Shown here piece after piece: positions 22,311 to 36,784 of a stretch of 63,746 nt of DNA. The notes under the pieces are model-generated. The model saw nothing but the letters and a program-made list of their open reading frames with translations. It was not told the origin of the DNA and made no database searches. The DNA lies in the IMG/VR virus record IMGVR_UViG_3300027985_000695, positions 1 through 63,746 of that record; one strand, 5' to 3'. The DNA comes from a virus. Taxonomy: Duplodnaviria > Caudoviricetes. Made by a program: the position numbers and the translations under genes. Each line of letters starts with the position of its first letter. The stretch's first letter is position 1.

Positions 22311-25300
22311 TGCCTTACGAACCGTATCAGGATGAAGATCCGAACATCCTCGACCAAGAGAGCGCGCAAGCCGCTCAGGCTGTTGACTCCAAGCTTGAGC
22401 GGCTTTCCGATGTCGGCAACGGCGACGATGAGATAGAATACGCGCTGAAGATGCTCAAGGGCAGCGCCCCGCCGCCAGAGACTTCAGGCGACTCCTATTT
22501 CGATGCGCTCGGCGTCTTCGGCCGCACTCTTAAAGACCTTCCCACGCACATCAAGGCGTCAGTCGCGCAGGGCTTTTACGACCCGGAGGACATGACGCTT
22601 GACCGCTCGTCCTGGCATGAAAAGGCCATGGACGAGAGCAATGCAGCGATGGAAGAGGCCCGTCGCTACTACGATCCTGTCCTCGGCAAGAACATCGTTC
22701 CCGGCATTACTGCGGGGGACATACTTGACACCGGCCCGTCTGTCGGATTCTCAACCGCGAGCATGGGCGCCTACGGCGTCGGAGCGCTTGCCGGCGGCGC
22801 CGTCGGCATGCCGACCGTTGGCGGCGGCGCAGCGTCTCTGTTCGCCACCAAGGAGATGGCCACCGGCCAGTTCAACGACATGCTCGGTCGTGCGCTCGCC
22901 GAATCTGCGAAAGCCGAAGGCAGGAACTACACGCAGGCCGACTTGCAGCAGGACGTCGCATACTTCCAGAGCGAGGCCGACAAGTACGGATGGTACGAAT
23001 CCGCCCTTGAAACCATCGGCAACATCGTCATGGGCAAGACGTTCGGCGCGGGGAAGGAAGCGTTCTCAGGTCTTCTCAACAAGGTTTTCGGGGAGAAGGT
23101 CGGCGGCTACCTCGGCAAGAACATCGTCACGCGAACCCTGTCGAAGCTTGGGATCAACACTGCGGAGGAACTCCCCTCCGAGACTGCGACGCAGATAGGA
23201 CAGGGAGGCGTCGAGGCTGACGTTGCCAACCAACTGAGAGGCATCGGACTTGAAATGCCGGGCTGGCGCACCGAAGCGCCGGGCGTGACGCAGGCTCTCG
23301 GCGAGGTCGCCGCCCCTGTGGCCGCTCAAACGCTCTTCACCGGCGGCCTGGCGGCAGGTACGCGAGGCGTCTACGACCTTGCAAAGAAGGGCATGGAAGT
23401 CTCCCGCCGCGCCGACGATGAACTCGCAACGCAAGCCGCGAACGAGGAAGCTGCGCGCACCATTCCTCCGAAGACCTCGCCCGTCGAGATGCCGCAACCC
23501 GAAGCCGCCCCTGTGGAACCACAGGGGGAGGGCTTCACGCCTGTTCGCGGCGCCCTTGATACAATGCAGATCGTGAGCGACCCTGAAGAGAACGCGCGGT
23601 ACATAGCTGCGATGAAGACGAATTTGAAGATCGCCGACGAGGAAGATATCAGCGACAGGGCCGAGAGGCTCTTTGCCGAGGGGAAGTCTCGCGCCGAGGT
23701 AATGACCGCGCTGAAGCAGGAACTTCAGGCCATCGAAGAGAAGCACGGCATCAAGCCTGCTTCAATCATTAACGCCGTCGTCAGGGACCGCAAGATTCCT
23801 GGCTTTGAGAGCGAGGGCAGGAAACAGTGGCTTGCCGACATGGCCGGGTACTACAAGTCTCAGGATGCCGCGAAGCCGAAGGTTGAGTTTGATGAGGATG
23901 GAGTCGAGGTTGCGCAGAAAGACCTCAACCATCCTTATGGCCACCTGCGCGGCATTCCTCGTCCGATGTCGAATTACCTCGGCAACAAGCGCAGCATGAT
24001 CCAGGCAGGCGCCTTCATCGGAGCCATTGCCGACAAGATCAAGCAGAGCAACATCGTTGACGTCTTCGCCGGTTCAAGCCTTCTGAGCCAGCTTGTCGGC
24101 AAGCAGAACCCGAACGCCAAGCGCGTCGTCAACGACCTCAACGCCGACGTGTTCAACTTCCATGATGTTGCCCGCAACAAGCCCGACGAGTTGATGTCTG
24201 AGGTGTCGAACAGCCTCAACAAGATTCGCTCAGTCATGTCGCGCTTCAACGAAGGAGGCAAGCTTGCGCATTCTGAGATTGCCGATCTTTGGAAGGAAAT
24301 CAAAACGCGCAGCGAGTTCGGCGATCCGGTTCAGAAAGCCGCTGCGATGGCTCTTGTGTCCGGCCAACTCGGTCAATTCGGCAAGGCAAAAGACACCGTT
24401 GACGCCGAGTCCGGCGTCCAGGGAAGTCAGCGCATCATCAAGGGCGAAGGCGCATCGAAGCCGTATGCCTGGACTGCATCTACAAAGAGCCTTGACAACT
24501 ACGAGGAGACGCTCAGGCAGTTCGTTGCCGATGCAAAGAACACTGAAGTAACGAACAAGGACGCCACCGAAGTATTGAACAATGCTACGGCTGACGGACT
24601 GTACCTTGTCGATCCTCCTTATGTTGCAGGTGAGGGGAAGGAAGGAGTCAACGACTATAAGGAAGGGAAGGAATTGACTTCCCTGGAAGGCGCCTTATCC
24701 TTTATAAATGGCCCCCTGAAAGCCGCCCATGAAAAGGGCGCGGGCTTGGTTTACACAAACAATTTTACCCCGGAACTTGCGACTGCATTGCGCGACCTCG
24801 GCTTTGCAGTCAGGAAGGTAAAGAATCTCAAGAGCCAGAACACCGGAAGCGAGGCAGGGAGCAGAGATGAAATCGTCGCCTACAACTCAGCAGCCGCAGG
24901 CAGGGATGTTGATGGACAGAATGCAGATGCTCGGCGAGGGGACAGTGCCACCGCAGGTGTTCGACAGCCTGACGCCGGAGGATCAGAGAACGTTCCTGAC
25001 GGAACCGGACCCGAAGATGTGGAGTCCAAGCCTGCAAGCAGCGATGCAGGAGTACCTGACGCTGGAACGCGACCCGGAGATGGAGGACGAGGAGCCGCAG
25101 CCGCAGGCATCGGAGAGCAGCATACCCTCCCCGGCGTAGAGACTGCTGAGAAGCAGGAAGAGTCTCCCGAGTCAAAGCCATCTCTTGCGGAGGCTTTGGA
25201 AGCGGCCAGCGACAAGCCCGCCAGAAGCCAGGAAGCGAAAAATCCGACCGAAGGTGCGCCGGAAGGGGAAAAACCCGCGACAGCGCCCCCTGTAGCCCCT

Positions 25301-28300
25301 GAGAGGGAAGCGGCCAAAAACGCCGCCGAACAGGGCGAAAAAACCACCATTTCCCCCGCCGAACTGGCCGACGCCATTGAGTCCGGGCTTGGCGACGCAT
25401 CGTTTGTGCCGTTCAGGGCCAACGAGCGCAGGCTCGCCGACGCCATCAGGAATGGCAAGACCGAATTCAACGTCAGCAAGAATCTCAGCCGCGTCATAGC
25501 TGACAGGCTCAATGCCGCAGTCGGCAAGGAAGAGAACGTATTCGGCGGCAAGGTGACGAAGATTGAGGGCGGGGCTGGTAAGCGCAAGTACGCAGTCTCC
25601 CGCAATCACGGCAGCATCGTCTTCAATGAAGCCACAGGCGCATTCACCCATGAAGCGACTGCGAAGGAAGAAGCACCCGACATTCTTTATTCCACCAAGG
25701 GGATGCGGCTGCGGCGAGATGACCGTCGTGAGACTCGCCAGACCGTTCGTGACATTGTAGGAAATAGTGCCTCTCGCACAATGGTCAATGAAGTTCTTCA
25801 AAACTCCATCGATGCGCTGCGTGAACGGTTCGGCGTTGACAGGTCGTCGTCACCTAAGAAGGGTGACATCAAAATCAAGGTAGTCAAGTTCTTTGGTGGC
25901 AATTATCACTTTGACGACGCCAAGATGAATGATGATGTCGAAAGATATGATTCGTCTATCATTCGCTTTGAGATTGAGGACAACGGCACCGGTATGACTG
26001 CCGATGACGTTCGCGAGAAGTTCCTCAAAATTTCTGGAGAGGGCAAGGATGCAACCTTGCTGTCAGGTGGCTACGGCAGGGCGAAGCTTGCGTTCCTGTT
26101 TATCCCGCATCACTGGCGTCTTGAGACCACGAAGAACGGCGTGACGACTTATGTCTCAGGCAACCGTGAACAGATGTACGACGGCCTTGAGCTTGATCAC
26201 TACTCCAAGAAGGAAGGGAAGGAACGCGGCACCAAGCTGACGTTGTACTGCTACGGCAACGGAAAATACGCCGAGAACGATCCCGTTGACCCTAACGCAG
26301 ACCTTCATGTTCCCGGCTACAACATCGACGCGATGGTGAAGTCGTATGTCAATTCGCTGGCGCTAAACGTGCCCGTGGAGTACCATGAGTCGAACTACTA
26401 CAACAACGATGAAGCTGCGGAGAACAATAACCTTGATGCTCCGGTAAAGTACCATGAAAAGCCTTCCATGCTGCAAGGCTCTGCCCTTGACGACAGAAAG
26501 CTTTTCATGGACCCGAAGCGCGACATTATGATTAACGGCTCTCGCGTAAATATTTTCTACGTCGAGAGGCCGGAACACGAAGTCAAGCACGCAAAGAAGT
26601 ACAACTACGCGCCGAAGTTCGCTTTCTCGTTCTACAACAAAGGAATCAAGCTGCATGAACTCAGCTTTGACATGCAGGCGCCTGACCACCCTCCGTTCGA
26701 CATACATGTCAACGTTGCGCGCACCCCCGATACCGAGGATGCAAAATATCCCTTCCGTGACAACAGGCGCAGGTTGCAGGGAGACTTCAGCGAGAAGCTG
26801 ACTGATATCATTCGGCGCGACGTGCAGTCATTCAATGAACGCATCATAAAAATGCACCGCGATCGTCTCAAGGACATGTACGATTCGTCTCCTGAGTTTG
26901 AAGGCGTGAAGGTTCTCATCCCGTATGAGAAAAAAGACGTCGAGAGCATCAAGGATGACATCAACAGGCATCGCTTCCTGTTTGAAGATATCGCGAAGCT
27001 GTTCAAGGCGTTTGAGACAACCATCAAGGACGCCGTTGGAGAAAAAGTCGTCGATGCGCTCAAGAAAGTTGGCGGGACTCAAGACAGCGAGTTCGACAAC
27101 GACTTTGAGTTCGACATTTCGTTGGATGAGAAGAGCCACGGATTCAGACTCGGCAAGGCAGTCGCTGGTCGTCCTGTTTATGCGTTGAACCCGTTCGCCA
27201 TCACAAAGCAGTTGATGGAAGGCAACGGAATCTACAAGGCGCTCATAGACGTAGAGGATGCAATCGAGCGTGACGCCGTTATGAAGAGCCTGATGGCGAA
27301 CAACCTCGTCAACACCTTCATCCATGAATACGCTCACAACTTCGTGCAGTCTCACTACGAGTCATTCTCAAGCGTAGAGGACTTGCTGCATGCCCAGATA
27401 GGGTATGGAACCATAGCCGAACTGGCCGATCAGGCTTACCAGCTGTTCGACACGCATCAGGAGGCCATTGATGAAATCACGTCCAAAAAGCGAACAAGAC
27501 AAGAGACAGACCTTAAACTCATGCGCAACAACTCTCTTGTTCAGTCCAAGGAACTCGCTGGACGAGAAGATTCTGGACTATCACGCGAAGGACAAGGAGA
27601 AGGCGCGGCAGAAGATTCACGAGAACGGCGGGATGGAGTCGATGAAGGACGCGGTGATCGCGGAAGCGATGAACCGCAAGGCCCGCCTGAGTTCAAGCGC
27701 GACGTAAAGAATCAGCGCGATGCGATCAATAAAAAGACCGCCGGCATCTTCAAGACGAAGGCGATTCCTCGCGTCAAAGACTTCCTCTCCACCGTCCTGA
27801 ACCCGCAGACTGTCGAGGAGCGGCGCTTTGTGAAGGCAGGCGACCAGATGGCCACGATCTACACCGACAGGTCGTTCGGCCCCTTGCGCCGCGCCATCGC
27901 CCTGCCTTCCGCTGTGGCCCGAAAGTTCCCCGACCTCTTCAAGCCGCTGATGGACATTCAGGCGTTCCGCGAAGATACGCACCAGGAATACATCACGGAT
28001 GCGTTCAAAAACCTTGAGCAGATGATGAACCTGAAAGGCCAGGACGCCGACAGGCTCGTGAACGTCATCCACGACCTCGATGGAAATTTTGACGCATACA
28101 AGGAGTTCGGCGTCAAGTGGTTCAAAGAGGCCGGCGACGGAACGATGGAGGCCAACGACGAGTTCTACGAGAAGCTTCCAGACTTCCTGCGTGAGAGGTA
28201 TCCGAAGATGTCGGACGCTTCCATCAACTCGTTCGTGGCCATCCAGCAGGAACTTACCAAGACCTTCATTACCGTCCACAACAACGCGCATCAGGTCGGC

Positions 28301-30502
28301 GGCGAGGCGACGCATGCCTCCCTGAAAGACTACCGCAACGCGATGGGGAAGCTGCCTTTCTACTTCCCGCACAAGCGATACGGCTCGCACTACCTGAAGG
28401 CGACGAATGACAAGGGCGAAACGATCTATCGTGAGCACTTCGACAAGCGCAGCCTGGAAGTTCTCGGTAAGGGCATCGACCAGTTCGTGAAGGACCGCAT
28501 CAAGGCGATCCCGAGCGAGCTCTTGAAGCAGCCCCAGTTCGCGGACACCGACCTCTCAGGAGCGCACTGGGAAGTCCGAAAGGTAAAGAAGCTGCCTGAA
28601 GCCGTGTTCGACACGCCGATACCTGAGCGCGCCATTCAGCAGGTCATCACGCATGGCCTTGACAAGTTCGACGATGAAACGAAAGAGCGACATCGCGAGA
28701 TGCTCATGCAGGCTTTCTCCGACGTGTTCAAACAGCGCGGAGCCGGATCGTCGTTCATCAAGAGACAGAACATCCCCGGATACGAGCGCACGGACGTTCG
28801 CCGCGTGGTCTACGACCATGTTTCCGGCATGTACGGCTACATCACCAAGGCCGACGCCGCCAGGCGCATGACTGCCCACATGTGGAACATTCACGGCGCC
28901 GAAGACCCGGAGCTCTACGAGTACAGCGAGCGGTACGTCAAGGACATGCTTCAGAACGCCGACGTGCATGACAAGCTTGTCTCATGGTGGAAGTCCCTCG
29001 GGTTCGTCGTCTACCTTGGCGCCCGCGTTTCCACCGCCGCGGTGAACCTGACGCAGAACATCATCACAGGCATCCCGGCCCTCGGCATGTACGTCAAATA
29101 CTCGGAGAAGAGCTATTTCGACGCGCTGAAGGACATCACGACGCTTGTCAGGTACTCGCTCACCGGCAAGGCCGAAGGATACCGCAAGGAGTCCGGGCTT
29201 ACCCGCGACGAGTGGACGATGATCCAGAAGCTTTACGCTCAGGGCGACTTGCAGGATCAGTATTTCCGCAGCTTCCAGGCTGAGATGCAGGGCAAGGTGT
29301 CGAGGGCGTGGCACAAGGCCGTCACCTTCATGGGCATACCGATGACCGTGACCGAACGCTTCAACCGCGCATCGTTGGCGCTGGCCGCGTACCGCTCGGC
29401 CAAGAAGGGACACATCACCGACTCGGCCTGGACTACGAAGGTCGGGACCGGGGCATCGTTCAACGAGGATCAGGCCATTGAGTTCTGCAAGATGATAGTG
29501 AACAAAGCGCACTTCATCTACCGCAAGGGCAATGTCCCGCAAGCGATGCGCGGCACGACCGGCGGCAAGTATCTCTCGACCGCATACCAGTTCAGGCGCT
29601 TCACCCACAACATGCTCTCCCTGTGGACTGAGATGTTGCAGAGCGGGCCACGGGGGAGGATTGCGCTGATGAAGTCTCTGGCGGGCCTTATGAGCGTCGG
29701 CGGCCTCGCGTCCATGCCTCTCTATGCGACGTTTATGAATGCCGCGTTCGCCGCAACCGGCGACGACTGGGAGGAGAAACTCAGGAAGATGATGCCGAAG
29801 GATGCCGACGCGATGCGCGACATGCTCATCTACGGGCTTCCGTCGCTTGCCGGCGTGAACCTCTCAGGCTCGATGGCCATCGACCTTCCGTATGTGAGCG
29901 ACACGATGCCGAAGGGCGCTGGCGAAACGTCTGCGCTGGAAATCCTCGGCATCCCGTATGCGTTCCTCGTCGAGCAGCCGCAGAAATTCAACCGCAGCAT
30001 GGAGGCAGGCGAGTATTACCGCGCCTTCACCGAAGACTTCCCGTTCATGCCGATGGCCGCGAGGCAGGTCTTCTCGGCGATTAGGCTCGGGACTGAAGGC
30101 AGTTACACGCGCAGCGGTCGAGAGGTCAGGGCGCCGGGCGAACGCGGCCCCATGAAGCTTGGATTCATGGCCGCGCTCGGCAAGTCACTCGGATTCCAGC
30201 CGACGAGCATGTCCAACGCCTTCAAGGCCAGCGTCAGCGTGCAGAAGTCGAAGGAATTCCTTGATGGCTTCAAGCGCAACCTCGCCGACGAGTATACGAA
30301 TGCGCAGCGGCGCGGAGACAAGGAGGCGATGCTCGACATTCGCCGCCAGGTCAGGGAGTGGAACAAAGAGGCGCGCAGTGAGAAGAAGCCGTATTACGTC
30401 ATCGACCTTTCGGATTCGCTGAGGGCAAGACGCAGGCCGGTGGGAGGCGCGGGCAAGAAATTCCGCAGTCGCGAGAAAGAAGCGCAGGACGCCTACATGT
30501 AA
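22310..30502 (+). CDS. Giant polyvalent virion protein (DarB-like position): DNA adenine methyltransferase + GHKL ATPase + HExxH + PLxRFG-like C-terminus
   Basis: YLGNK/DVFAGS/NDLN/DPPY (about 23960-24880); NEVLQNSIDA, EDNGTGM, GGYGRAK (about 25780-26100); IHEYAH (27320-27337); YFPHKRYG (about 28361). Confidence 0.85.
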   Translation: MPYEPYQDEDPNILDQESAQAAQAVDSKLERLSDVGNGDDEIEYALKMLKGSAPPPETSGDSYFDALGVFGRTLKDLPTHIKASVAQGFYDPEDMTLDRSSWHEKAMDESNAAMEEARRYYDPVLGKNIVPGITAGDILDTGPSVGFSTASMGAYGVGALAGGAVGMPTVGGGAASLFATKEMATGQFNDMLGRALAESAKAEGRNYTQADLQQDVAYFQSEADKYGWYESALETIGNIVMGKTFGAGKEAFSGLLNKVFGEKVGGYLGKNIVTRTLSKLGINTAEELPSETATQIGQGGVEADVANQLRGIGLEMPGWRTEAPGVTQALGEVAAPVAAQTLFTGGLAAGTRGVYDLAKKGMEVSRRADDELATQAANEEAARTIPPKTSPVEMPQPEAAPVEPQGEGFTPVRGALDTMQIVSDPEENARYIAAMKTNLKIADEEDISDRAERLFAEGKSRAEVMTALKQELQAIEEKHGIKPASIINAVVRDRKIPGFESEGRKQWLADMAGYYKSQDAAKPKVEFDEDGVEVAQKDLNHPYGHLRGIPRPMSNYLGNKRSMIQAGAFIGAIADKIKQSNIVDVFAGSSLLSQLVGKQNPNAKRVVNDLNADVFNFHDVARNKPDELMSEVSNSLNKIRSVMSRFNEGGKLAHSEIADLWKEIKTRSEFGDPVQKAAAMALVSGQLGQFGKAKDTVDAESGVQGSQRIIKGEGASKPYAWTASTKSLDNYEETLRQFVADAKNTEVTNKDATEVLNNATADGLYLVDPPYVAGEGKEGVNDYKEGKELTSLEGALSFINGPLKAAHEKGAGLVYTNNFTPELATALRDLGFAVRKVKNLKSQNTGSEAGSRDEIVAYNSAAAGRDVDGQNADARRGDSATAGVRQPDAGGSENVPDGTGPEDVESKPASSDAGVPDAGTRPGDGGRGAAAAGIGEQHTLPGVETAEKQEESPESKPSLAEALEAASDKPARSQEAKNPTEGAPEGEKPATAPPVAPEREAAKNAAEQGEKTTISPAELADAIESGLGDASFVPFRANERRLADAIRNGKTEFNVSKNLSRVIADRLNAAVGKEENVFGGKVTKIEGGAGKRKYAVSRNHGSIVFNEATGAFTHEATAKEEAPDILYSTKGMRLRRDDRRETRQTVRDIVGNSASRTMVNEVLQNSIDALRERFGVDRSSSPKKGDIKIKVVKFFGGNYHFDDAKMNDDVERYDSSIIRFEIEDNGTGMTADDVREKFLKISGEGKDATLLSGGYGRAKLAFLFIPHHWRLETTKNGVTTYVSGNREQMYDGLELDHYSKKEGKERGTKLTLYCYGNGKYAENDPVDPNADLHVPGYNIDAMVKSYVNSLALNVPVEYHESNYYNNDEAAENNNLDAPVKYHEKPSMLQGSALDDRKLFMDPKRDIMINGSRVNIFYVERPEHEVKHAKKYNYAPKFAFSFYNKGIKLHELSFDMQAPDHPPFDIHVNVARTPDTEDAKYPFRDNRRRLQGDFSEKLTDIIRRDVQSFNERIIKMHRDRLKDMYDSSPEFEGVKVLIPYEKKDVESIKDDINRHRFLFEDIAKLFKAFETTIKDAVGEKVVDALKKVGGTQDSEFDNDFEFDISLDEKSHGFRLGKAVAGRPVYALNPFAITKQLMEGNGIYKALIDVEDAIERDAVMKSLMANNLVNTFIHEYAHNFVQSHYESFSSVEDLLHAQIGYGTIAELADQAYQLFDTHQEAIDEITSKKRTRQETDLKLMRNNSLVQSKELAGREDSGLSREGQGEGAAEDSRERRDGVDEGRGDRGSDEPQGPPEFKRDVKNQRDAINKKTAGIFKTKAIPRVKDFLSTVLNPQTVEERRFVKAGDQMATIYTDRSFGPLRRAIALPSAVARKFPDLFKPLMDIQAFREDTHQEYITDAFKNLEQMMNLKGQDADRLVNVIHDLDGNFDAYKEFGVKWFKEAGDGTMEANDEFYEKLPDFLRERYPKMSDASINSFVAIQQELTKTFITVHNNAHQVGGEATHASLKDYRNAMGKLPFYFPHKRYGSHYLKATNDKGETIYREHFDKRSLEVLGKGIDQFVKDRIKAIPSELLKQPQFADTDLSGAHWEVRKVKKLPEAVFDTPIPERAIQQVITHGLDKFDDETKERHREMLMQAFSDVFKQRGAGSSFIKRQNIPGYERTDVRRVVYDHVSGMYGYITKADAARRMTAHMWNIHGAEDPELYEYSERYVKDMLQNADVHDKLVSWWKSLGFVVYLGARVSTAAVNLTQNIITGIPALGMYVKYSEKSYFDALKDITTLVRYSLTGKAEGYRKESGLTRDEWTMIQKLYAQGDLQDQYFRSFQAEMQGKVSRAWHKAVTFMGIPMTVTERFNRASLALAAYRSAKKGHITDSAWTTKVGTGASFNEDQAIEFCKMIVNKAHFIYRKGNVPQAMRGTTGGKYLSTAYQFRRFTHNMLSLWTEMLQSGPRGRIALMKSLAGLMSVGGLASMPLYATFMNAAFAATGDDWEEKLRKMMPKDADAMRDMLIYGLPSLAGVNLSGSMAIDLPYVSDTMPKGAGETSALEILGIPYAFLVEQPQKFNRSMEAGEYYRAFTEDFPFMPMAARQVFSAIRLGTEGSYTRSGREVRAPGERGPMKLGFMAALGKSLGFQPTSMSNAFKASVSVQKSKEFLDGFKRNLADEYTNAQRRGDKEAMLDIRRQVREWNKEARSEKKPYYVIDLSDSLRARRRPVGGAGKKFRSREKEAQDAYM
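24867..25139 (+). CDS. Candidate overprinted small gene nested in the +1 frame of the giant gene
   Basis: GGAG RBS upstream; G/C-ending codon bias moves into this frame while the host frame becomes low-complexity. Confidence 0.55.
   Translation: MKSSPTTQQPQAGMLMDRMQMLGEGTVPPQVFDSLTPEDQRTFLTEPDPKMWSPSLQAAMQEYLTLERDPEMEDEEPQPQASESSIPSPA
27471..27707 (+). CDS. Second candidate overprinted small gene in the +1 frame of the giant gene
   Basis: AGGAGG 6 nt before ATG 27471; GC3 bias in this frame over its 3' half. Confidence 0.5.
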   Translation: MKSRPKSEQDKRQTLNSCATTLLFSPRNSLDEKILDYHAKDKEKARQKIHENGGMESMKDAVIAEAMNRKARLSSSAT

Positions 30503-30554: not shown

Positions 30555-30791
30555 TCAGCAGCCGAACACGCCGTCCTTGTCGAAAAACGCCGTGATGAGT
30601 AGATACCCATCGGCGCAATCCTGAATTACAGCCACGACGCCGTTATGGATGGCTTTGAACCTGAATATTCCATCCTTGTACTTCCCGTCAGTGTACCACA
30701 GGCCGTTGTGTAGCGACTTCCTGACGCTGCCCATGGAGATGTTGCGCCTCTCCATCGCCTTCCTCGCGTGGTCTGAGACTATGAGCTTCAT
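30555..30791 (-). CDS. DUF4258-like small protein
   Basis: MKLIVSDHARKAMERRNIS...LLITAF pattern. Confidence 0.65.
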   Translation of the reverse strand: MKLIVSDHARKAMERRNISMGSVRKSLHNGLWYTDGKYKDGIFRFKAIHNGVVAVIQDCADGYLLITAFFDKDGVFGC

Positions 30792-31171
30792 TTGACGCAA
30801 GCCCCCTCTATCTCGCCGTCGCTCTTGAAGCACCTGTATCCTGGGGCGCAGTCAACGTCGAACGAGCACGTATCGCCGTATGGACGATCATACGGCGAAG
30901 ACGGGTACGCATCGTTGTCGTTGCCGGGCCATATGCCTCCGACGCATGCGCCACCAAGGCCGTCAATCTGCAAACACTCGCTGCCGATGGCGCAGTCCGC
31001 GTCTGTTACGCACCCCTCCGCATCATCGACAGACGAGGCAACCACCAGGCACGCCAAGGCAGCAATGAATATGGCAATCTTCAACACCCTGTTGTTGTCG
31101 TCGATGTCTATTTCAAACTTATACATCGCGACGACTATTGCGCTGAGTATAGCGATTGTGAACAGTATCAT
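30788..31171 (-). CDS. Membrane-anchored Cys-rich protein
   Basis: Two hydrophobic segments, then two C-x2-D-x-DC-x2-G-x2-C...G.C repeats. Confidence 0.7.
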   Translation of the reverse strand: MILFTIAILSAIVVAMYKFEIDIDDNNRVLKIAIFIAALACLVVASSVDDAEGCVTDADCAIGSECLQIDGLGGACVGGIWPGNDNDAYPSSPYDRPYGDTCSFDVDCAPGYRCFKSDGEIEGACVK

Positions 31172-31704
31172 TTCACGCCTCCAGATGGTGTTTCTTTAAT
31201 GTTGACGCCAAGGTCTTTAAGTACGGCAGAAAGCATCTTTATAATGGAAGCGTTCTGCTTAATAATGACATTATTCTGAGACTGCATAGTTTCAATGTTG
31301 CGTTCGATGCGCTGTGTGTCAGACTTGTCAAGATGGATCAAGCTGCCCTGAACAGACGCTCCGGCATCGACGCTCTCCCTCCTTGCCGCTTCTTCACGGG
31401 CTGCAACCACCTTGGCGTCAAGCACTTTGTGCAGTTCCTCAACAAAGCGGCTGCGCGTTTCTTCAGTGACGACGCCTCCGCTGTACAAGACCTTTCCGCC
31501 CCTTCCTGAGTTGACTGCAAGCTTTGCGTTGACAAGCGCCGTGATGAACGTGTGCGTGTTAGCGCCTGCATCCGATGCGGCATCGGCAGCCGACTTATCC
31601 GGGTCTTGGCTGAGCGACGCTGCATATAATGCAGTCACAGCCCTATTTACTGCATTGATTCGCTTCTTACTGCTTCTGAGTTCTACGTCTACCTCATTGC
31701 TCAT
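31168..31704 (-). CDS. Hypothetical protein
   Basis: 178-aa ORF with overlapping start/stop junctions. Confidence 0.7.
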   Translation of the reverse strand: MSNEVDVELRSSKKRINAVNRAVTALYAASLSQDPDKSAADAASDAGANTHTFITALVNAKLAVNSGRGGKVLYSGGVVTEETRSRFVEELHKVLDAKVVAAREEAARRESVDAGASVQGSLIHLDKSDTQRIERNIETMQSQNNVIIKQNASIIKMLSAVLKDLGVNIKETPSGGVK

Positions 31705-32701
31705 GGTTAGCCCCCTGTAGTAACATTTCGGTTTTTACGATTGCCGCAAGAATCATTGCAGCTACTTGCGGAACTATGGCGTTCCCGTATCCTCTAATCT
31801 GGCCCACCCTTCCGGGTATCCCATTAGCCAGCAGGGGAAGTCCGGGTTTAATCCGCCGCACCTTGCCATCGGCGCACCAGATGCGTCCGGTTCGATGCCA
31901 TGATGAACGGCCTTCGCCATAACCTGCAAATCCGTAATTGCTTTCCGCGTCCCTCCTTTCATGTTGCGTTTCATCTCCATGTGTGCAGCCGGCGACTTCC
32001 CGTCCGGCTGTGCCGTCGGCGTAGGCCAGACCGCAAACTGCGCCTGAGTCGCCAAGCCGTCGCCAGAGTTGGCCGACGCCCCCTTGCGGTTGTAGTTTCC
32101 GCAAACGCTCGGAGTTGACCATGCCGCCATGTGCATCACAAAGTCGTTCAGTTGAAGCCCGAACGCCCCCTCGCGCCTCTTCTCCAGCGACTCCTCCGAC
32201 CTCGCGCCCCTGTAATCCCTCGCCAGCGGAGTGGGCCAGAACCCAAACTCGTTCGCGGATATGCGGGGCATCGACGGCGCAAGCCGGAACAATAAGCGGC
32301 CTTGCGGAGTAACCTGAATCCTCCAAGTCAAGAAGAACTCCATCGAGGCCCAGAGTGACGTGTCCAACAACATTTTCACACACGACCCAAGAGGGCCGTG
32401 CAGCCCTGATAACCCTGAGCATTTCCGGCCAGAGCCAGCGGTCATCGCTCTCGCCCTCTCGCCGCCCGGCAAGGGACGTCGGTTGGCACGGGTATCCTCC
32501 GGTAACAAGTCCAAAAGACTGGTCTGGTTCATAAGTAGTGATGTCCTCATGTATTGGAATGCCGCTGAAGTTCTTACGCAGTATGGATTGCGCGTTCGGG
32601 TCGCACTCTACAAATTGCAGCGTGTCGATGTGGCCTACCATCTTTGCGGCGAGAGCGAAGCCTCCGATGCCGCTGAATAGGTCGAGATGCGTAATAATCA
32701 C
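31694..32701 (-). CDS. dcm: DNA (cytosine-5) methyltransferase, large (alpha) polypeptide
   Basis: LDLFSGIGG (motif I), GGYPCQ (IV), CENV (VI), APHIRERVWV (VIII), YGNAIVPQVA (X). Confidence 0.9.
   Translation of the reverse strand: MIITHLDLFSGIGGFALAAKMVGHIDTLQFVECDPNAQSILRKNFSGIPIHEDITTYEPDQSFGLVTGGYPCQPTSLAGRREGESDDRWLWPEMLRVIRAARPSWVVCENVVGHVTLGLDGVLLDLEDSGYSARPLIVPACAVDAPHIRERVWVLAHSAGEGLQGREVGGVAGEEARGGVRASTERLCDAHGGMVNSERLRKLQPQGGVGQLWRRLGDSGAVCGLAYADGTAGREVAGCTHGDETQHERRDAESNYGFAGYGEGRSSWHRTGRIWCADGKVRRIKPGLPLLANGIPGRVGQIRGYGNAIVPQVAAMILAAIVKTEMLLQGANHEQ
31774..32550 (-). CDS. Alternative-frame (beta) polypeptide of the C5 methyltransferase, nested inside dcm; exact start uncertain
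   Basis: Repeated WPTP/WSTP units and motif IX-like LNPDFPCWLMGYPEGW, which the alpha frame lacks. Confidence 0.75.
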   Translation of the reverse strand: MRTSLLMNQTSLLDLLPEDTRANRRPLPGGERARAMTAGSGRKCSGLSGLHGPLGSCVKMLLDTSLWASMEFFLTWRIQVTPQGRLLFRLAPSMPRISANEFGFWPTPLARDYRGARSEESLEKRREGAFGLQLNDFVMHMAAWSTPSVCGNYNRKGASANSGDGLATQAQFAVWPTPTAQPDGKSPAAHMEMKRNMKGGTRKAITDLQVMAKAVHHGIEPDASGAPMARCGGLNPDFPCWLMGYPEGWARLEDTGTP

Positions 32702-32716
32702 GCAGTTAGCCCCCAG

Positions 32717-33187
32717 TTAATCATCCATTAATGTTTTACTGTATTCCCATCGAATCTTTTTTGCGGTGTATATATTTCTCTTAACTCTTTCGCGTCCATT
32801 TCCATCCCATTGCCTATTTTTTCCACCAGCTACTCTAGCGGCTTGTTTCCAGCCTGCACCCTTTAGCGATGCGCCTGATTCACTATTGAGTGTGTACGTA
32901 ACCATACGATTGCCACCCATTGCGAACCATGCCCTTTGACATGCGGAATACAGCTTTGAGCATGCGCCTTTAGGTGCGTGTTCAAGCACGCATACCCTAG
33001 TGACTTCACCGCACAGTCCGTCGTCTATCGCTCTAGCTACAGGGCGTCCAACAACAGCAACTCCGATAAGCTCGCTTTCATACACCAACCCTATGGCAAA
33101 CCTGCATCCTCGCGTTGGGTTACTGTGTCTATGATAGCGCGATATAAAGTCGTTTGCAGTTTTAAGTGTTACCGGAACTATCTTCAC
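32717..33187 (-). CDS. XF1762-family protein (GNAT-like)
   Basis: ANDFISRYHRH..GCRFAIG..GVAVVGRPVAR..EVTR.C..ACSKLY..TYTL..ESGASLKGAGW; visibly AT-rich. Confidence 0.8.
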   Translation of the reverse strand: MKIVPVTLKTANDFISRYHRHSNPTRGCRFAIGLVYESELIGVAVVGRPVARAIDDGLCGEVTRVCVLEHAPKGACSKLYSACQRAWFAMGGNRMVTYTLNSESGASLKGAGWKQAARVAGGKNRQWDGNGRERVKRNIYTAKKIRWEYSKTLMDD

Positions 33188-33754: not shown

Positions 33755-35065
33755 TCACTCGGAACGCTCCGACTCGTTGATGAACCTGAACACGTTCTCG
33801 GAGAAGCCGTCGATGTGCGTCCACGCTCCGTAGCCGACGCCGTTCTCGTAGCTGGCCACGTTGATGATGTACGCATCCTTGGCATACGGATCCGGAACTC
33901 GGTCGTCCGTGATGACGATGATTCTGTCATGCTCGACCTTGTTCATGTCTGACACCGTCTTGCCAAGGTACGTAGCGTTGTGGTCGGTTGCGCGCATGAT
34001 CGTGTCGCCGAGAGGGAATCCGCGGTGAGGCGCAACGACCCTGTGGAATGTCGAGAAGGCGACGATCATGCATTCCTCGCAAATCTCCCTCGCGATCATG
34101 GCGAGGGCGCAGGCGGCATGGATTCGCTCCATGTCGCTCTTGGCCGACACCTTGGTTTGGTACATGGACCCGGAGTTGTCCACGACGATGATCGTCTTGC
34201 CGGGGAGTTTCGGCATGTCGAAACAGCACGAGAACAGCTTTTTCTCAAGAGCGTCGAGGACGATGCTCGACTGCGTGTATGAGGCGGCTGCGACGAACCT
34301 GAAGGGCAGGACGCGGGATGCGTTCATGTCCTCGATTGCGCCGGCGATCTTCTTGGGCGGAACATCGACGAGATGCATATTCCTGATGTTCCTGAGCACC
34401 GCCAGGCCGCCGAGCTTCTTCTCGTCGATCAGTCGCTCCCAGACCTCGCGCTTTTCTTCATCGCTTTTGCACTGCGACAAGCCGACCTCCCACGTGTCGG
34501 GAACGGCAAGCTTGTCGTCGAGCAGCTTTCCGAAAATATCGCTCTGGGCGACGTCTTTCGGCCTCGGATGAATCAGAAGCATGGCGTCCTTGAGCGTGAT
34601 CTCGCGCTTGCGATTGTATTTCGCAAGCTGGTACTCGCTGAACTTGTTGAAGGCGTCGCCGAGGCCGCGCTTCACGCATGCGGCGATGGGAGTCTTCCCG
34701 TCCTGCCAGTACATGGCCATGAACTCGGTGATCTCGTCGGGGCGCCCTATGATGTTGGCTAGGAGGTCGGCGACCAGATGGCGGGCATCCTTGCGGCGAA
34801 CGAGCTCGCGCGCCAGGAGAAGCGGAACGTGGCGCAGCTTGAAGTCGTACCGCGCTTCGATGGCGAGGTCGGCCACCTTCGACGGCTCAACGGACGCGCA
34901 CAGCGTCTTTATACGGTCGGCGATGCTCACGCCGTCCTCGTAGAACTGGTTTTCCCACAGGAGGCACGCGGACACCGTTCGGCGCAGTTGACGATATCCG
35001 TCGAGAATGACGGCCTTGGCGCCCTCATGGGTGTTCGGCTTCTTTTTCGCTTTGTTCAATCGCAT
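33755..35065 (-). CDS. rsr: Ro60-family TROVE + vWA RNA-binding protein
   Basis: THEGAKA..QLRRTVSACLLWENQFYE, FSEYQLAKYNR, TWEV.LS, LRNIRNM, SRVLPFRFVAA, MIDAS DNSGSM; RBS AAGGAG 7 nt before ATG 35065. Confidence 0.92.
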   Translation of the reverse strand: MRLNKAKKKPNTHEGAKAVILDGYRQLRRTVSACLLWENQFYEDGVSIADRIKTLCASVEPSKVADLAIEARYDFKLRHVPLLLARELVRRKDARHLVADLLANIIGRPDEITEFMAMYWQDGKTPIAACVKRGLGDAFNKFSEYQLAKYNRKREITLKDAMLLIHPRPKDVAQSDIFGKLLDDKLAVPDTWEVGLSQCKSDEEKREVWERLIDEKKLGGLAVLRNIRNMHLVDVPPKKIAGAIEDMNASRVLPFRFVAAASYTQSSIVLDALEKKLFSCCFDMPKLPGKTIIVVDNSGSMYQTKVSAKSDMERIHAACALAMIAREICEECMIVAFSTFHRVVAPHRGFPLGDTIMRATDHNATYLGKTVSDMNKVEHDRIIVITDDRVPDPYAKDAYIINVASYENGVGYGAWTHIDGFSENVFRFINESERSE

Positions 35066-35087
35066 GTCCATGCTCCTTTGAAGCCCC

Positions 35088-35130
35088 AAAATAAAAGGAC
35101 GCCACACGGGGGCTAGTCGTGTGGCGTCCT
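35088..35130 (-). terminator. Intrinsic terminator between the Y RNAs and the Ro60 gene
   Basis: Minus strand AGGACGCCACACG-ACTAGCCCC-CGTGTGGCGTCCT followed by TTTATTTT. Confidence 0.7.
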
Positions 35131-35138
35131 ATGAAAAA

Positions 35139-35201
35139 CCGGGGAAAAAGCGCGGCGGGTGTAGTTTCGACCAATGAAGTAACCCGACGCAACGCCACCG
35201 G
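35139..35201 (-). ncRNA. Short Y-RNA-like RNA 3
   Basis: 5' GGTGGCGTTGCGTCGGGTTACTTC motif shared with the two upstream RNAs; 5' and 3' ends pair (CCGG). Confidence 0.7.
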
Positions 35202-35212
35202 AAATGTCAAAA

Positions 35213-35296
35213 GCAGGGGAAGGGATCGCACCGGGATGCTCAGGTCTCAGACCTGATTTCATTATGAGTGAAGTAGCCCGACGCTTCGCCACCTGC
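35213..35296 (-). ncRNA. Y-RNA-like RNA 2
   Basis: GCAGG/CCTGC terminal stem; GGTGGCGAAGCGTCGGGCTACTTC motif; hairpins TTCA-CTCATAA-TGAA and TCAGGTC..GACCTGA. Confidence 0.75.
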
Positions 35297-35310
35297 ATTG
35301 ATGGCATGAT

Positions 35311-35451
35311 AGAAGGAGGTAAATGACGGAGCGGGGAACAGGTTGCTCTAACAGACTGAGCTATTGCGTGTTCGTTGGTCACGCAAGTGGGATTTGAACC
35401 CACGACCCACCGCTTAACAGGCGAAGTAACCCGCACCTGCGCCATCCTTCT
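35311..35451 (-). ncRNA. yrlA: YrlA-type Y RNA with a circularly permuted tRNA-like domain
   Basis: AGAAGGA/TCCTTCT terminal stem, GGGTTACTTC motif, CGC-CTGTTAA-GCG, T arm GTGGG-TTCAAAT-CCCAC, closed acceptor stem TTGCGTG-ACCAACGAA-CACGCAA, then D arm GCTC-AGTCTGTTA-GAGC. Confidence 0.88.
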
Positions 35452-35457
35452 TTTCAT

Positions 35458-35486
35458 ACAGTACATATCCATATATACTTTGTCAA
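35458..35486 (-). promoter_or_regulatory. Sigma70-type promoter for the Y RNA/Ro60 operon
   Basis: TTGACA-17 nt-TACTGT; the predicted +1 (about 35451) coincides with the 5' end of YrlA. Confidence 0.8.
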
Positions 35487-35509: not shown

Positions 35510-35764
35510 TTAAAAGTCAACAGGTTGCGCGTTCTTACCGCCCGCTTGGGTCAGGCGTACCTCGTCCTTGCTCCATGAGCACAGGTCGCCCTCCCTGTGA
35601 TTGCGGTGATGGATGTTCCAAGCAACAGCGCATGTCTGCGGCCATAGGCACTTGCCGTCGCGACACTGTGTACACCATTCCTTGCAGAAGTCGGCAAGAT
35701 GCTTTCGCATGTACACGACGCTATGGTGCATCTTCCCAAGCTCGCGACGAACTGTCTTACTCAA
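35510..35764 (-). CDS. Small Cys-rich hypothetical protein (start uncertain)
   Basis: Fills the gap after the 35757 stop; several Cys pairs. Confidence 0.5.
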   Translation of the reverse strand: MSKTVRRELGKMHHSVVYMRKHLADFCKEWCTQCRDGKCLWPQTCAVAWNIHHRNHREGDLCSWSKDEVRLTQAGGKNAQPVDF

Positions 35765-36293
35765 CGGTCGCGGGCGAGGCATCGGCGTATGCATCCTCGA
35801 TGTATGCCATGATGTCGGCGTAGTAGCCGTTAACCTGCATGTCGGTAAACCCTCGACGCTCAAGCTCCATCGTGGCGGCCCTGTTTGTAAGATCGTCATC
35901 GTCAAACAGCGCAAGCCTTATAAGTTGCGCGTTCGTGACGTTGCTAAAGGTGCTCTCAAGGAACTTCTCGTTGTTCTCGCATCTTGCGTATGTCGGCCTG
36001 TCATCGCTGCCGAGGCCATGCTTCTGGTAGGCAAGCAGGAACATCATGTTGCACATGGCGTGTGCAAGATGGTTCAGGCCGCTCTCAGGGTCAATGTCCT
36101 CGCCAAAGAGCCACGACTCCATGTGCCTCTTGGCGGCGTCGTAGCAGCGCGTCCAGTCCATGCCGCCGGTCCAGTTGTAGTCGCCGTACTTGTCCGCGCC
36201 CATCATCAACACGCGCACCAACTCGTCGATGGCTTCCTTGTCGAGAAGGTGGTGTTTCAGCTTTCCGTAGTCGAACTTGTTCGCATCAGACAT
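35757..36293 (-). CDS. dATP/dGTP diphosphohydrolase-domain protein (DUF5664-like)
   Basis: KFDYGK..LL....GADKYGDYNW..G..W...YDAA.RH...W..GEDIDPESGLNHLAHAMCN. Confidence 0.88.
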   Translation of the reverse strand: MSDANKFDYGKLKHHLLDKEAIDELVRVLMMGADKYGDYNWTGGMDWTRCYDAAKRHMESWLFGEDIDPESGLNHLAHAMCNMMFLLAYQKHGLGSDDRPTYARCENNEKFLESTFSNVTNAQLIRLALFDDDDLTNRAATMELERRGFTDMQVNGYYADIMAYIEDAYADASPATVE

Positions 36294-36304
36294 GTTGCTC
36301 TCCT

Positions 36305-36784
36305 TTATTCTTCTGCAATGTTTGTCGTGCGCCACGATGCGCGCCCGTGGTTCTTGTCCCTGCAATCCGTAAATCCGACAGCCCATGCTTTGCGCAACTC
36401 GGAGTCGTCGGTTAATCCTGCATACGGATTGTCGGTGTACAGGTCTTCGCCGGCCTGGCATGCCGTGCGTCCTTCATCAACGGCATCGGAAATCATCTTT
36501 TCGCGCACTCTCAAAATCTCGGCGCGAATGCAACGTTCGATGACGCACAGGTTGTTCGTGTTTATGTCGGCGTGGTTGTTGAAGTCGATGATGATGAAGT
36601 CGCCGCACACGGTGCTCTCTGTCCCGTCCACCGATATTTCGCCGTGAGACGCCACCATTTCCATGAGCATACGAGAAAGCGCGATGGAGTTGATGTCGTG
36701 GACATTGACGTTGATCTCTCCGAGTTCAACCTCGAATGCCATCTTGACGTTGCTGCGGTGTATTTTGAAGCGATCCCCTTCCAT
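36305..36784 (-). CDS. Hypothetical protein with an Rmf-like C-terminal motif
   Basis: EGR.A......NPY.......KAWAVGF. Confidence 0.6.
   Translation of the reverse strand: MEGDRFKIHRSNVKMAFEVELGEINVNVHDINSIALSRMLMEMVASHGEISVDGTESTVCGDFIIIDFNNHADINTNNLCVIERCIRAEILRVREKMISDAVDEGRTACQAGEDLYTDNPYAGLTDDSELRKAWAVGFTDCRDKNHGRASWRTTNIAEE

Follow-up and report, generated by a model that had tools for sequence, protein, structure and literature searches.

What does a phage encode in the gap ahead of a gene for a TROVE-domain protein? The question arises at positions 33,755 to 35,486 of IMGVR_UViG_3300027985_000695, a 63,746-base whole virus record with direct terminal repeats that is estimated to be complete and that, at its full length, is the window of this study. 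Between the stop of the upstream open reading frame (ORF; 35510) and the TROVE start codon (35065) lie 444 nucleotides (nt), and a reading made from the sequence alone (the sequence-only reading) had placed there three tandem Y RNAs, a promoter and an internal terminator, all belonging to a phage-encoded Ro60. We regard it as highly probable that the locus is a phage-borne Ro60/Y RNA cassette; as such it is of a known type, in a new phage, and the earlier interpretation is supported. Reading along the minus strand, the gap houses a promoter-like site, RNA1, a 15-nt spacer, RNA2, an 11-nt spacer, RNA3, the sequence UUUUUCAU, a terminator, AAGGAG and the ATG, with both of the spacers between the RNAs being A/U-rich.

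The gene itself (33755..35065, minus strand) encodes 436 amino acids (aa) comprising a TROVE domain (the HEAT-repeat ring) and a vWA domain; its start ATG is at 35065 and is preceded by the ribosome-binding sequence AAGGAG at 35078-35073. Pfam TROVE (PF05731) was matched with 75 bits against a cut-off of 23 (E 8.8e-21), while VWA_2 scored 22.3 bits, under its cut-off of 27 (E 2e-4); the translation contains DNSGS, a MIDAS motif, and the ORF was assigned to PHROG 850. By sequence, the sole solved relatives at E ≤ 0.01 were the Ro60 structures of Thermus phage phiLo (9KOP/9L5Y; E 1.3e-19). An AlphaFold2 model built on 43 aligned sequences (mean predicted local distance difference test, pLDDT, 87; predicted template-modelling score, pTM, 0.83) was submitted to Foldseek, whose 13 best matches were all Ro60 structures (phiLo, Xenopus, human, Deinococcus) with query-normalised TM-scores of 0.62-0.74 (9kop 0.74, 1yvp 0.72, 2nvo 0.63), so that phiLo Ro60 is the closest solved structure by both sequence and fold. 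The subfamily is very large, with at least 7,958 clusters (90% identity) at E ≤ 1e-10, mostly of ~430-445 aa. By family, by sequence similarity to the solved phage Ro60 and by predicted fold, the ORF is a Ro60 orthologue, and the TROVE/vWA gene named by the sequence-only reading is thereby borne out.

Three predicted Y RNA genes precede the Ro60 gene on the same strand. Their common signature is a 22-nt motif, TGGCGNNGNNNCGGGYTACTTC, which occurs three times, always on the minus strand (35423-35444, 35270-35291 and 35176-35197), against 0.00 occurrences expected from 100 shuffles; the sharing of this motif had been noticed before. RNA1, a YrlA-type Y RNA of 139 nt (35312..35450, minus strand), was delimited by the motif, by the covariance model R1 described below and by its minimum-energy fold, with scripted boundaries. 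RNA2 is a short Y RNA of 84 nt (35213..35296, minus strand; R1 and folds) and RNA3 a minimal one of 63 nt (35139..35201, minus strand; fold, and R1, of which it is a seed member). The lengths of the two smaller RNAs are those reported earlier, and the first comes to 139 nt by the boundaries used here, not 141. Folded without constraint at these exact ends, each RNA is closed by its terminal stem together with a bulged U and GG:CC, confirming the proposed pairing of 5' and 3' ends.

The units combine one common, candidate Ro60-docking handle with differing cargo modules, which in RNA2 and RNA3 are small hairpins only. RNA1 has the terminal stem GAAGGA/UCCUUC, the bulged U, GG:CC, the 5' handle UGGCGCAG...GGGUUACUUC and the 3' handle CG-UCAUUUA-CC. 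RNA2 is closed by GCAGG/CCUGC and has the 5' handle UGGCGAAG and the 3' handle CG-AUCCCUU-CC; within it lie stem 2 (CGUCGGG/CCCGGUG), the hairpin UUCA-CUCAUAA-UGAA and a second hairpin, CAGGUC-UGA-GACCUG. RNA3, closed by CCGG/CCGG, has the 5' handle UGGCGUUG, stem 2 CGUCGGG/CCCGCCG with one mismatch, the hairpin UUC-AUUGGUC-GAA and the 3' handle CG-CUUUUU-CC, followed by UUUUU. The YrlA motif GNCGAAN0-1G is exact in RNA2 (GGCGAAG) and is altered at one position in RNA1 (GGCGCAG) and at two in RNA3 (GGCGUUG); the commonest 5' form in this clade of units is GGCGUAG.

Inspection by eye shows similar units arranged in rows next to TROVE in Xanthomonas phage 10KY502B, Caulobacter phage CcrColossus and Microcystis phage Mvi-JY20, as well as on two IMG/VR contigs. 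The covariance model R1 was built from nine short units of six sources, RNA3 included, and has 66 positions. RNAalifold on the MAFFT seed returned the terminal stem only, and because MAFFT had set stem 2 out of register, R1 carries just 7 pairs and stem 2 was tested by a permutation script. When run on the whole genome with filters off, R1 gave RNA3, RNA2 and RNA1 as its three best matches, all others having E ≥ 0.37; a model from phage homologues, which the sequence-only reading had suggested as a check, thus recovers exactly the three units. RNA3 scored 55.6 bits as a member of the seed. RNA2, which is not in the seed, scored 34.7 bits (E 9e-6 to 1.9e-5), a value not wholly independent, as its 5' handle resembles that of RNA3. 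The match to RNA1 (35313-35449) reached 19.2 bits (E 0.037) while spanning a 103-nt insert.

The family extends well beyond this phage. A loose 14-base motif scan of viral contigs fetched 80 loci, 13 of which contain R1 matches, and a TROVE gene lies within the 1.2-kilobase (kb) flanks of 11 of these 13 against none of the 67 without an R1 match; the latter were discarded as chance matches. Among 80 bacterial TROVE loci with proteins ~50% identical (from Acidobacteriota, Bradyrhizobium, Desulfococcaceae, Flavobacteriia, candidate phyla and others), R1 found 66 matches at 37 loci, every one upstream of the gene and on the gene's strand. Handle anatomy could be described from 58 delimited units at 18 loci, with three more motif sites lacking a 3' partner. 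The 5' part consists of a terminal stem of 4-23 base pairs (bp), one bulged U or C, GG, CG-(N)AG, a 5-7-nt strand of stem 2 and (U)UACUUC, after which comes the cargo; the 3' part consists of the return of stem 2, CG, a pyrimidine-rich stretch of 5-7 nt (most commonly YUUGUU), CC and the return of the terminal stem. All units of the window fit this description (5' GGCG-NNG...UUACUUC, 3' CG-N6-7-CC). Two or more units are present at 17 of the 18 loci, in rows of 2-8, with CcrColossus having eight.

Do these repeats act as RNA? Terminal-stem pairs were standard in 95.1% of 426 cells from 61 aligned units, compared with 64.8% in shuffles (none of 500 reached the native value), and 131 cells were altered on both sides compared with 39.9 in shuffles; these counts come from a structure-fitted alignment, which biases them towards structure. 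Sliding the partners by 1-3 columns left 54-63% paired, and this control, like the strand and position bias, is independent of the fitting. For stem 2, whose strands were set by sequence anchors only in the 40 of 58 delimited units that have a clean CG...CC 3' handle, native partners gave -8.27 kcal/mol against -5.08 (standard deviation 2.47) for partners drawn from other loci. Cells with G-U exceed those with A-C by 17 to 5, which speaks in favour of RNA on the TROVE strand. A 22-nt motif that is repeated directly three times in an intergenic gap, and whose units fold about equally well in sense and antisense, could also be a set of DNA elements such as protein-binding iterons or recombination sites. 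What is conserved, however, is the complementarity of distant segments under free sequence change, and the surplus of G-U over A-C, the agreement of orientation with the TROVE gene in 66 of 66 matches and the occurrence of tRNA (transfer RNA) T-loop and D-loop sequences on the TROVE strand only also weigh against DNA sites; we find this explanation scarcely credible.

Taking the repeats as RNAs, we then asked what RNA1 carries in its insert. Its tRNA-like core (35340..35411, minus strand) consists of a T arm (GUGGG-UUCAAAU-CCCAC), a 7-bp acceptor-like stem-loop (UUGCGUG/CACGCAA, loop ACCAACGAA) and a D arm (GCUC-AGUCUGUUA-GAGC). The core matched the Rfam YrlA model (RF02553) over model positions 23-86 of 114, which cover the T arm, acceptor-like stem-loop and D arm, with 36 bits (E 3.3e-6 for 601 bases searched). 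The YrlA search that had been proposed as a check thus returned a local match at a relaxed threshold and not the gathering score of 69 bits; Rfam at gathering thresholds gave no match in the whole window, and ARAGORN called no tRNA or transfer-messenger RNA (tmRNA) there. The acceptor-like loop begins with ACCA, at the place of the discriminator base and CCA. The circularly permuted tRNA order that had been claimed, with the T arm before the D arm and ACCA in the loop closing the acceptor stem, is confirmed. Among the tRNA-like units parsed, an encoded ACCA after a 7-bp stem recurs in CcrColossus unit 4 only; with just these two instances, it was rejected as a family trait.

Ahead of the T arm, at 35426-35412 on the minus strand, lies a small hairpin with the look of an anticodon arm (UCGC-CUGUUAA-GCGG). 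UUAC, corresponding to the published YUAY, leads into this 4-bp hairpin with its 7-nt loop, and UGGGUC follows. Chen et al. 2014 (PMC4201824), in the part of their paper that concerns this element, name the stem-loop after YUAY V. Judged by where it lies and by its shape, the RNA1 hairpin might just as well be an anticodon arm with a variable loop. Of the 58 units, 20 have at this site a hairpin whose stem is 4 bp or longer and whose loop is 7 nt, compared with 7.9% among shuffled controls, and an identical CUGUUAA loop directly follows UUACUUC in six units from different loci (the window, L004, L050, L060, L051 and L027). The loop has the anticodon-loop shape YU-NNN-RN, and RNA2 has CUCAUAA at the same place.

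The succession of stem-loop V, T arm, acceptor-like stem-loop and D arm in RNA1 fits the order by which Chen et al. 2014 recognise YrlA, as does its position, its end lying 247 nt upstream of the Ro60 start codon on the same strand. The YrlA architecture claimed for the locus therefore stands as regards the permuted tRNA core and a handle family on the strand of Ro60, and falls short as regards the Rfam score. In PMC4201824, RNase P cleavage and the addition of CCA in vivo are reported for one YrlA only, that of Mycobacterium smegmatis, whose acceptor stem is 7 bp long; by analogy, RNA1 is a candidate for the same cleavage and CCA processing.

With its T and D arms, its 7-bp acceptor stem and its ACCA, RNA1 could also be a tRNA gene, unusual or degenerate, or give rise to tRNA halves, RNA2 and RNA3 being decayed, functionless duplicates; moreover, GenBank calls tRNA-Thr, tRNA-Gln and tRNA-Ser in parts of related phage units. 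The T arm nevertheless comes ahead of the D arm, the acceptor stem is closed by a loop, and ARAGORN finds no tRNA in the window. Decaying copies would also lose what all three units retain, namely a conserved handle with stems that covary across phages and bacteria, and we consider this origin very unlikely. The GenBank features in question are the tRNA-Thr of Xanthomonas phage 10KY502B (L002 2331-2398), the tRNA-Gln of CcrColossus (L004 1628-1695) and the tRNA-Ser of Brevundimonas phage Gurke (L129 2266-2340), each located inside or beside a Y RNA unit upstream of TROVE; they look like mis-called permuted tRNA mimics. Gurke also has a match to the permuted tmRNA model RF04321 (L129 5842-6187; 57.7 bits, gathering score 47) ~2 kb downstream of its TROVE gene.

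How might RNAs and protein be expressed from one strand? The promoter-like site (35458..35486, minus strand) has the -35 hexamer TTGACA at 35486-35481, a 17-nt spacer and the -10 hexamer TACTGT at 35463-35458, which ends 7 nt ahead of the first paired base of the RNA1 terminal stem. Of 18 arrays, 6 have the pattern TTGAC-N16-18-TAnnnT no more than 80 nt ahead of their first unit, as against 0.3% of background 86-nt windows. A second perfect TTGACA at 35210-35205 (minus strand), in the spacer between RNA2 and RNA3, was considered as an internal promoter for the Ro60 gene and rejected, there being no -10-like hexamer at 16-18 nt. Between RNA3 and the gene stands an intrinsic terminator (35088..35130, minus strand) with a 13-bp G+C-rich stem and a 9-nt loop (35130-35096) followed by TTTATTTT (35095-35088). 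Its hairpin energy of -25.2 kcal/mol (z = -5.6) was equalled in none of 200 shuffles, in keeping with the strong terminator described by the sequence-only reading; a consensus scan missed it because that scan takes loops of 3-8 nt only. Only ~20 nt remain from the T-run to the Ro60 start codon, too few for a promoter, so the Ro60 message must come from read-through. To judge by the sequence, such a design would favour RNA over protein.

The same arrangement could be read as mainly a cis-acting leader of the Ro60 message, in which units and terminator form an attenuator, possibly autoregulated by Ro60, and yield no stable trans-acting RNAs. The terminator between units and ORF, the lack of promoter room in the ~20-nt gap, the UUUUU directly after the RNA3 stem and a hairpin over the ribosome-binding site of a relative all agree with a leader. 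Units of the same family are nevertheless found downstream of TROVE in Mvi-JY20 and at L041, where they cannot be leaders; arrays of up to 8 units with differing cargo modules are not what an attenuator calls for, and homologous RNAs are reported in PMC4201824, as far as its account of them extends, to be stable and Rsr-bound in three bacteria. A scripted scan for a hairpin with a T-run between last unit and start codon found none in 13 related arrays upstream of TROVE. We thus judge a leader improbable. The dedicated terminator between RNAs and Ro60 gene is particular to this phage in comparison with those 13 arrays.

Two observations from these relatives are recorded here. In Mvi-JY20 (L005 3851-4068) and at L041 (1046-1369) the Y RNA units downstream of TROVE are followed by ordinary tRNA genes. 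The relative with the ribosome-binding-site hairpin is L067, in which GGGCUUUC-AAUGGA-GAAAGCCC (~1420-1446) lies directly ahead of the start codon of TROVE and might act as a translational switch.

With the locus read as a Ro60/Y RNA cassette, how does it compare with known systems? According to Chen et al. 2014 (PMC4201824), 254 bacteria and 22 phages have YrlA-like RNAs next to Ro60; in Table S2, CcrColossus is credited with three, and the mycobacteriophages and Bacillus phage G with one each. The novelty implied by the sequence-only reading was accordingly too high, phage Ro60 with Y RNAs, including three tandem YrlA-like RNAs in one phage, having been tabulated in 2014. The same study describes at least two stable, Rsr-bound Y RNAs per species in three bacteria, and in M. 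smegmatis a single precursor, encoded upstream of rsr, from which both YrlA and YrlB are processed.

The window shares with the YrlA/YrlB-Rsr systems of Salmonella Typhimurium, Mycobacterium smegmatis and Deinococcus radiodurans (RF02553) a same-strand location no more than a few hundred bases from the Ro60 gene, the exact GNCGAAN0-1G of RNA2, YUAY ahead of a small stem-loop, the order of T arm, acceptor-like stem-loop and D arm, and the presence of two or more Y RNAs at a locus, of which one is tRNA-like and the others are simple hairpins. It differs in its YrlA score (36 bits against the gathering 69) and in the deviation of RNA1 and RNA3 from GNCGAA. Unlike the rsr-yrlBA-rtcBA operon, the phage has no RtcB beside Ro60 and no RtcB/RtcA operon; no match to RtcB was found anywhere in the complete phage genome, as had been claimed. 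In place of the sigma-54/RtcR control of Salmonella there is a sigma-70-like promoter, and in contrast to bacterial YrlA, RNA1 encodes ACCA after its 7-bp acceptor stem and a dedicated terminator stands ahead of the Ro60 gene.

CcrColossus (L004 1217-2420) is a close parallel: its Ro60 belongs to the same short subfamily (43% identity), the handle is the same, a tandem array lies upstream of the gene, and unit 4 likewise has a 7-bp acceptor stem and then ACCA. It is a jumbo phage, however, with no terminator between array and gene, and by our count it has eight tandem units, the three of the 2014 table being units 3, 4 and 6. For phiLo (Yrl1/Yrl2; PDB 9KOP, 9L5Y), the available part of PMC12135203 reports two Y-like RNAs just upstream of the phage Ro60 gene that bind Ro60 and host PNPase, with PNPase being slowed; like the phage of the window, phiLo encodes neither PNPase nor RtcB. 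Its Ro60 is only ~25% identical to that of the window, its RNAs number two, with no tRNA-like module mentioned in that part of the report, and they differ in sequence from those of the window, since R1 finds none beside the phiLo gene. Bas63 also has a phage Ro60-like protein, gp130, beside tRNA-like genes, a likeness of description; excerpts of the preprint (PMC11482910) state that gp130 counters the ppl defence and propose the neighbouring tRNA genes as Y RNAs, and a counter-defence role against ppl is shown for Bas63 only. Finally, for a Listeria phage, PMC12282133 proposes that three regions of high transcription ahead of an Rsr-like gene correspond to Y RNAs.

The handle of the window is not universal among phage Ro60 genes. 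With R1, no unit turned up next to TROVE in crAss001, Rhizobium phage RHph_TM30, phiLo or RsoM2USA, and the RNAs of these Ro60s, if any, employ a different handle. Bacteroides phage crAss001 has ~900 nt of unannotated DNA downstream of TROVE (L127 3850-4756) with a 144-nt match to a tRNA model containing a large insert (46.6 bits), in which R1 finds nothing, so that any RNA partner of the crAss-like Ro60 proteins is of a different type. In the literature searched, which did not cover the 2020 Annual Review on bacterial Ro60, we found no description of the handle consensus or of short, tRNA-less phage units.

How would such a cassette work? Host sigma-70 RNA polymerase would start at TTGACA/TACTGT, at about the first base of RNA1, and produce one precursor of ~360 nt ending mostly at the strong terminator. 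Host RNases would cut the 15-nt and 11-nt A/U-rich spacers, comparable to the release of M. smegmatis YrlA and YrlB from one precursor, and with the Ro60 message confined to read-through transcripts the RNAs would outnumber the protein. Ro60 would bind the handles, while the cargo modules would tether or gate the ring towards host factors. By analogy, the host partner may be the exonuclease PNPase, as documented for bacterial and phage Ro60/Y RNA particles, and the particle might reshape host RNA decay in the phage's favour or blunt host defence. An excess of RNA over protein and a redirected host RNA decay or repair, both put forward by the sequence-only reading, would be reasonable and are consistent with the phage Ro60 work in the accessible portion of PMC12135203.

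Several points weigh against the cassette as interpreted here. The YrlA score of RNA1 is about half the gathering score. The TTGACA-17-TACTGT site is present as claimed, but its -10 agrees with TATAAT at just 3 of 6 positions and is weak, because of which a consensus promoter scan left the site unlisted and called no promoter on the minus strand. RNA1 folds better than shuffles (z = -2.2), RNA2 (z = -0.26) and RNA3 (z = +0.40) no better, and since the thermodynamic fold alone is weak evidence, the two smaller RNAs rest on comparison. The sense fold is more stable than the reverse complement in only 25 of 40 whole units, RNA3 is in the seed of the model, and the alignment for the pair counts was fitted to structure. 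No RNA run was listed among the sequencing runs that contain this DNA, and a strong terminator ahead of the Ro60 ORF bears on the amount of Ro60 message produced.

Does the genomic setting suggest a role? PHROG matches across the genome include portal, internal virion proteins, tail fibres, terminase, helicases and endolysins, and the closest cultured relatives of one internal virion protein, at only ~30% identity, are Bcep22-like podoviruses of Burkholderia and Ralstonia. The same-strand neighbours of the cassette are a protein with a dATP/dGTP diphosphohydrolase domain (N-terminal domain, PF18909, 3.1e-30), an HNH-like protein, a Mom-like protein and a C5 DNA methylase. Genes of DNA-modification or anti-restriction type surround the cassette (30555-33187 and 35757-36461, minus strand; 22307-30502, plus strand), the last being a 2,731-aa virion protein with methyltransferase and DarB-like parts by PHROG and domain matches, and a DUF4258 protein is also among them. 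This hints at a counter-defence neighbourhood, and proves nothing.

With fairly low probability, the cassette could serve counter-defence or host takeover, its RNAs acting as tRNA decoys. RNA1 would then be a complete permuted tRNA, with an anticodon-like arm (loop CUGUUAA), variable loop, T arm, acceptor stem with ACCA and D arm, which RNase P could trim to a nicked tRNA look-alike with a CCA end, while RNA2 and RNA3 would display bare anticodon-arm-like hairpins. RNAs in terminator-driven excess, held by Ro60, might sequester or divert host enzymes whose substrates are tRNAs or RNA 3' ends; anticodon nucleases, PNPase and modification enzymes are candidates. If so, the position of the cassette among DNA-modification and anti-restriction genes would not be accidental.

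As a phage-borne Ro60/Y RNA cassette, the locus leaves the present picture of Ro60 biology unchanged and adds a clean, complete example from a mid-sized podovirus-like phage, with one candidate Ro60-docking handle common to very different phages and to bacteria. The terminator between RNAs and gene offers a simple, testable means of setting the ratio of RNA to protein. Standard annotation overlooks these RNAs: related phage units score 30-56 bits with the Rfam YrlA model, none reaching 69, so routine annotation would miss all of them, and GenBank wrongly labels some as tRNAs. Many Y RNAs that lack annotation would therefore be recovered by a model based on the handle. Looking forward, because phiLo Ro60 slows PNPase and the Bas63 gene counters a defence, according to the portions of those reports cited above, cassettes of this kind are candidates for phage control of host RNA metabolism.

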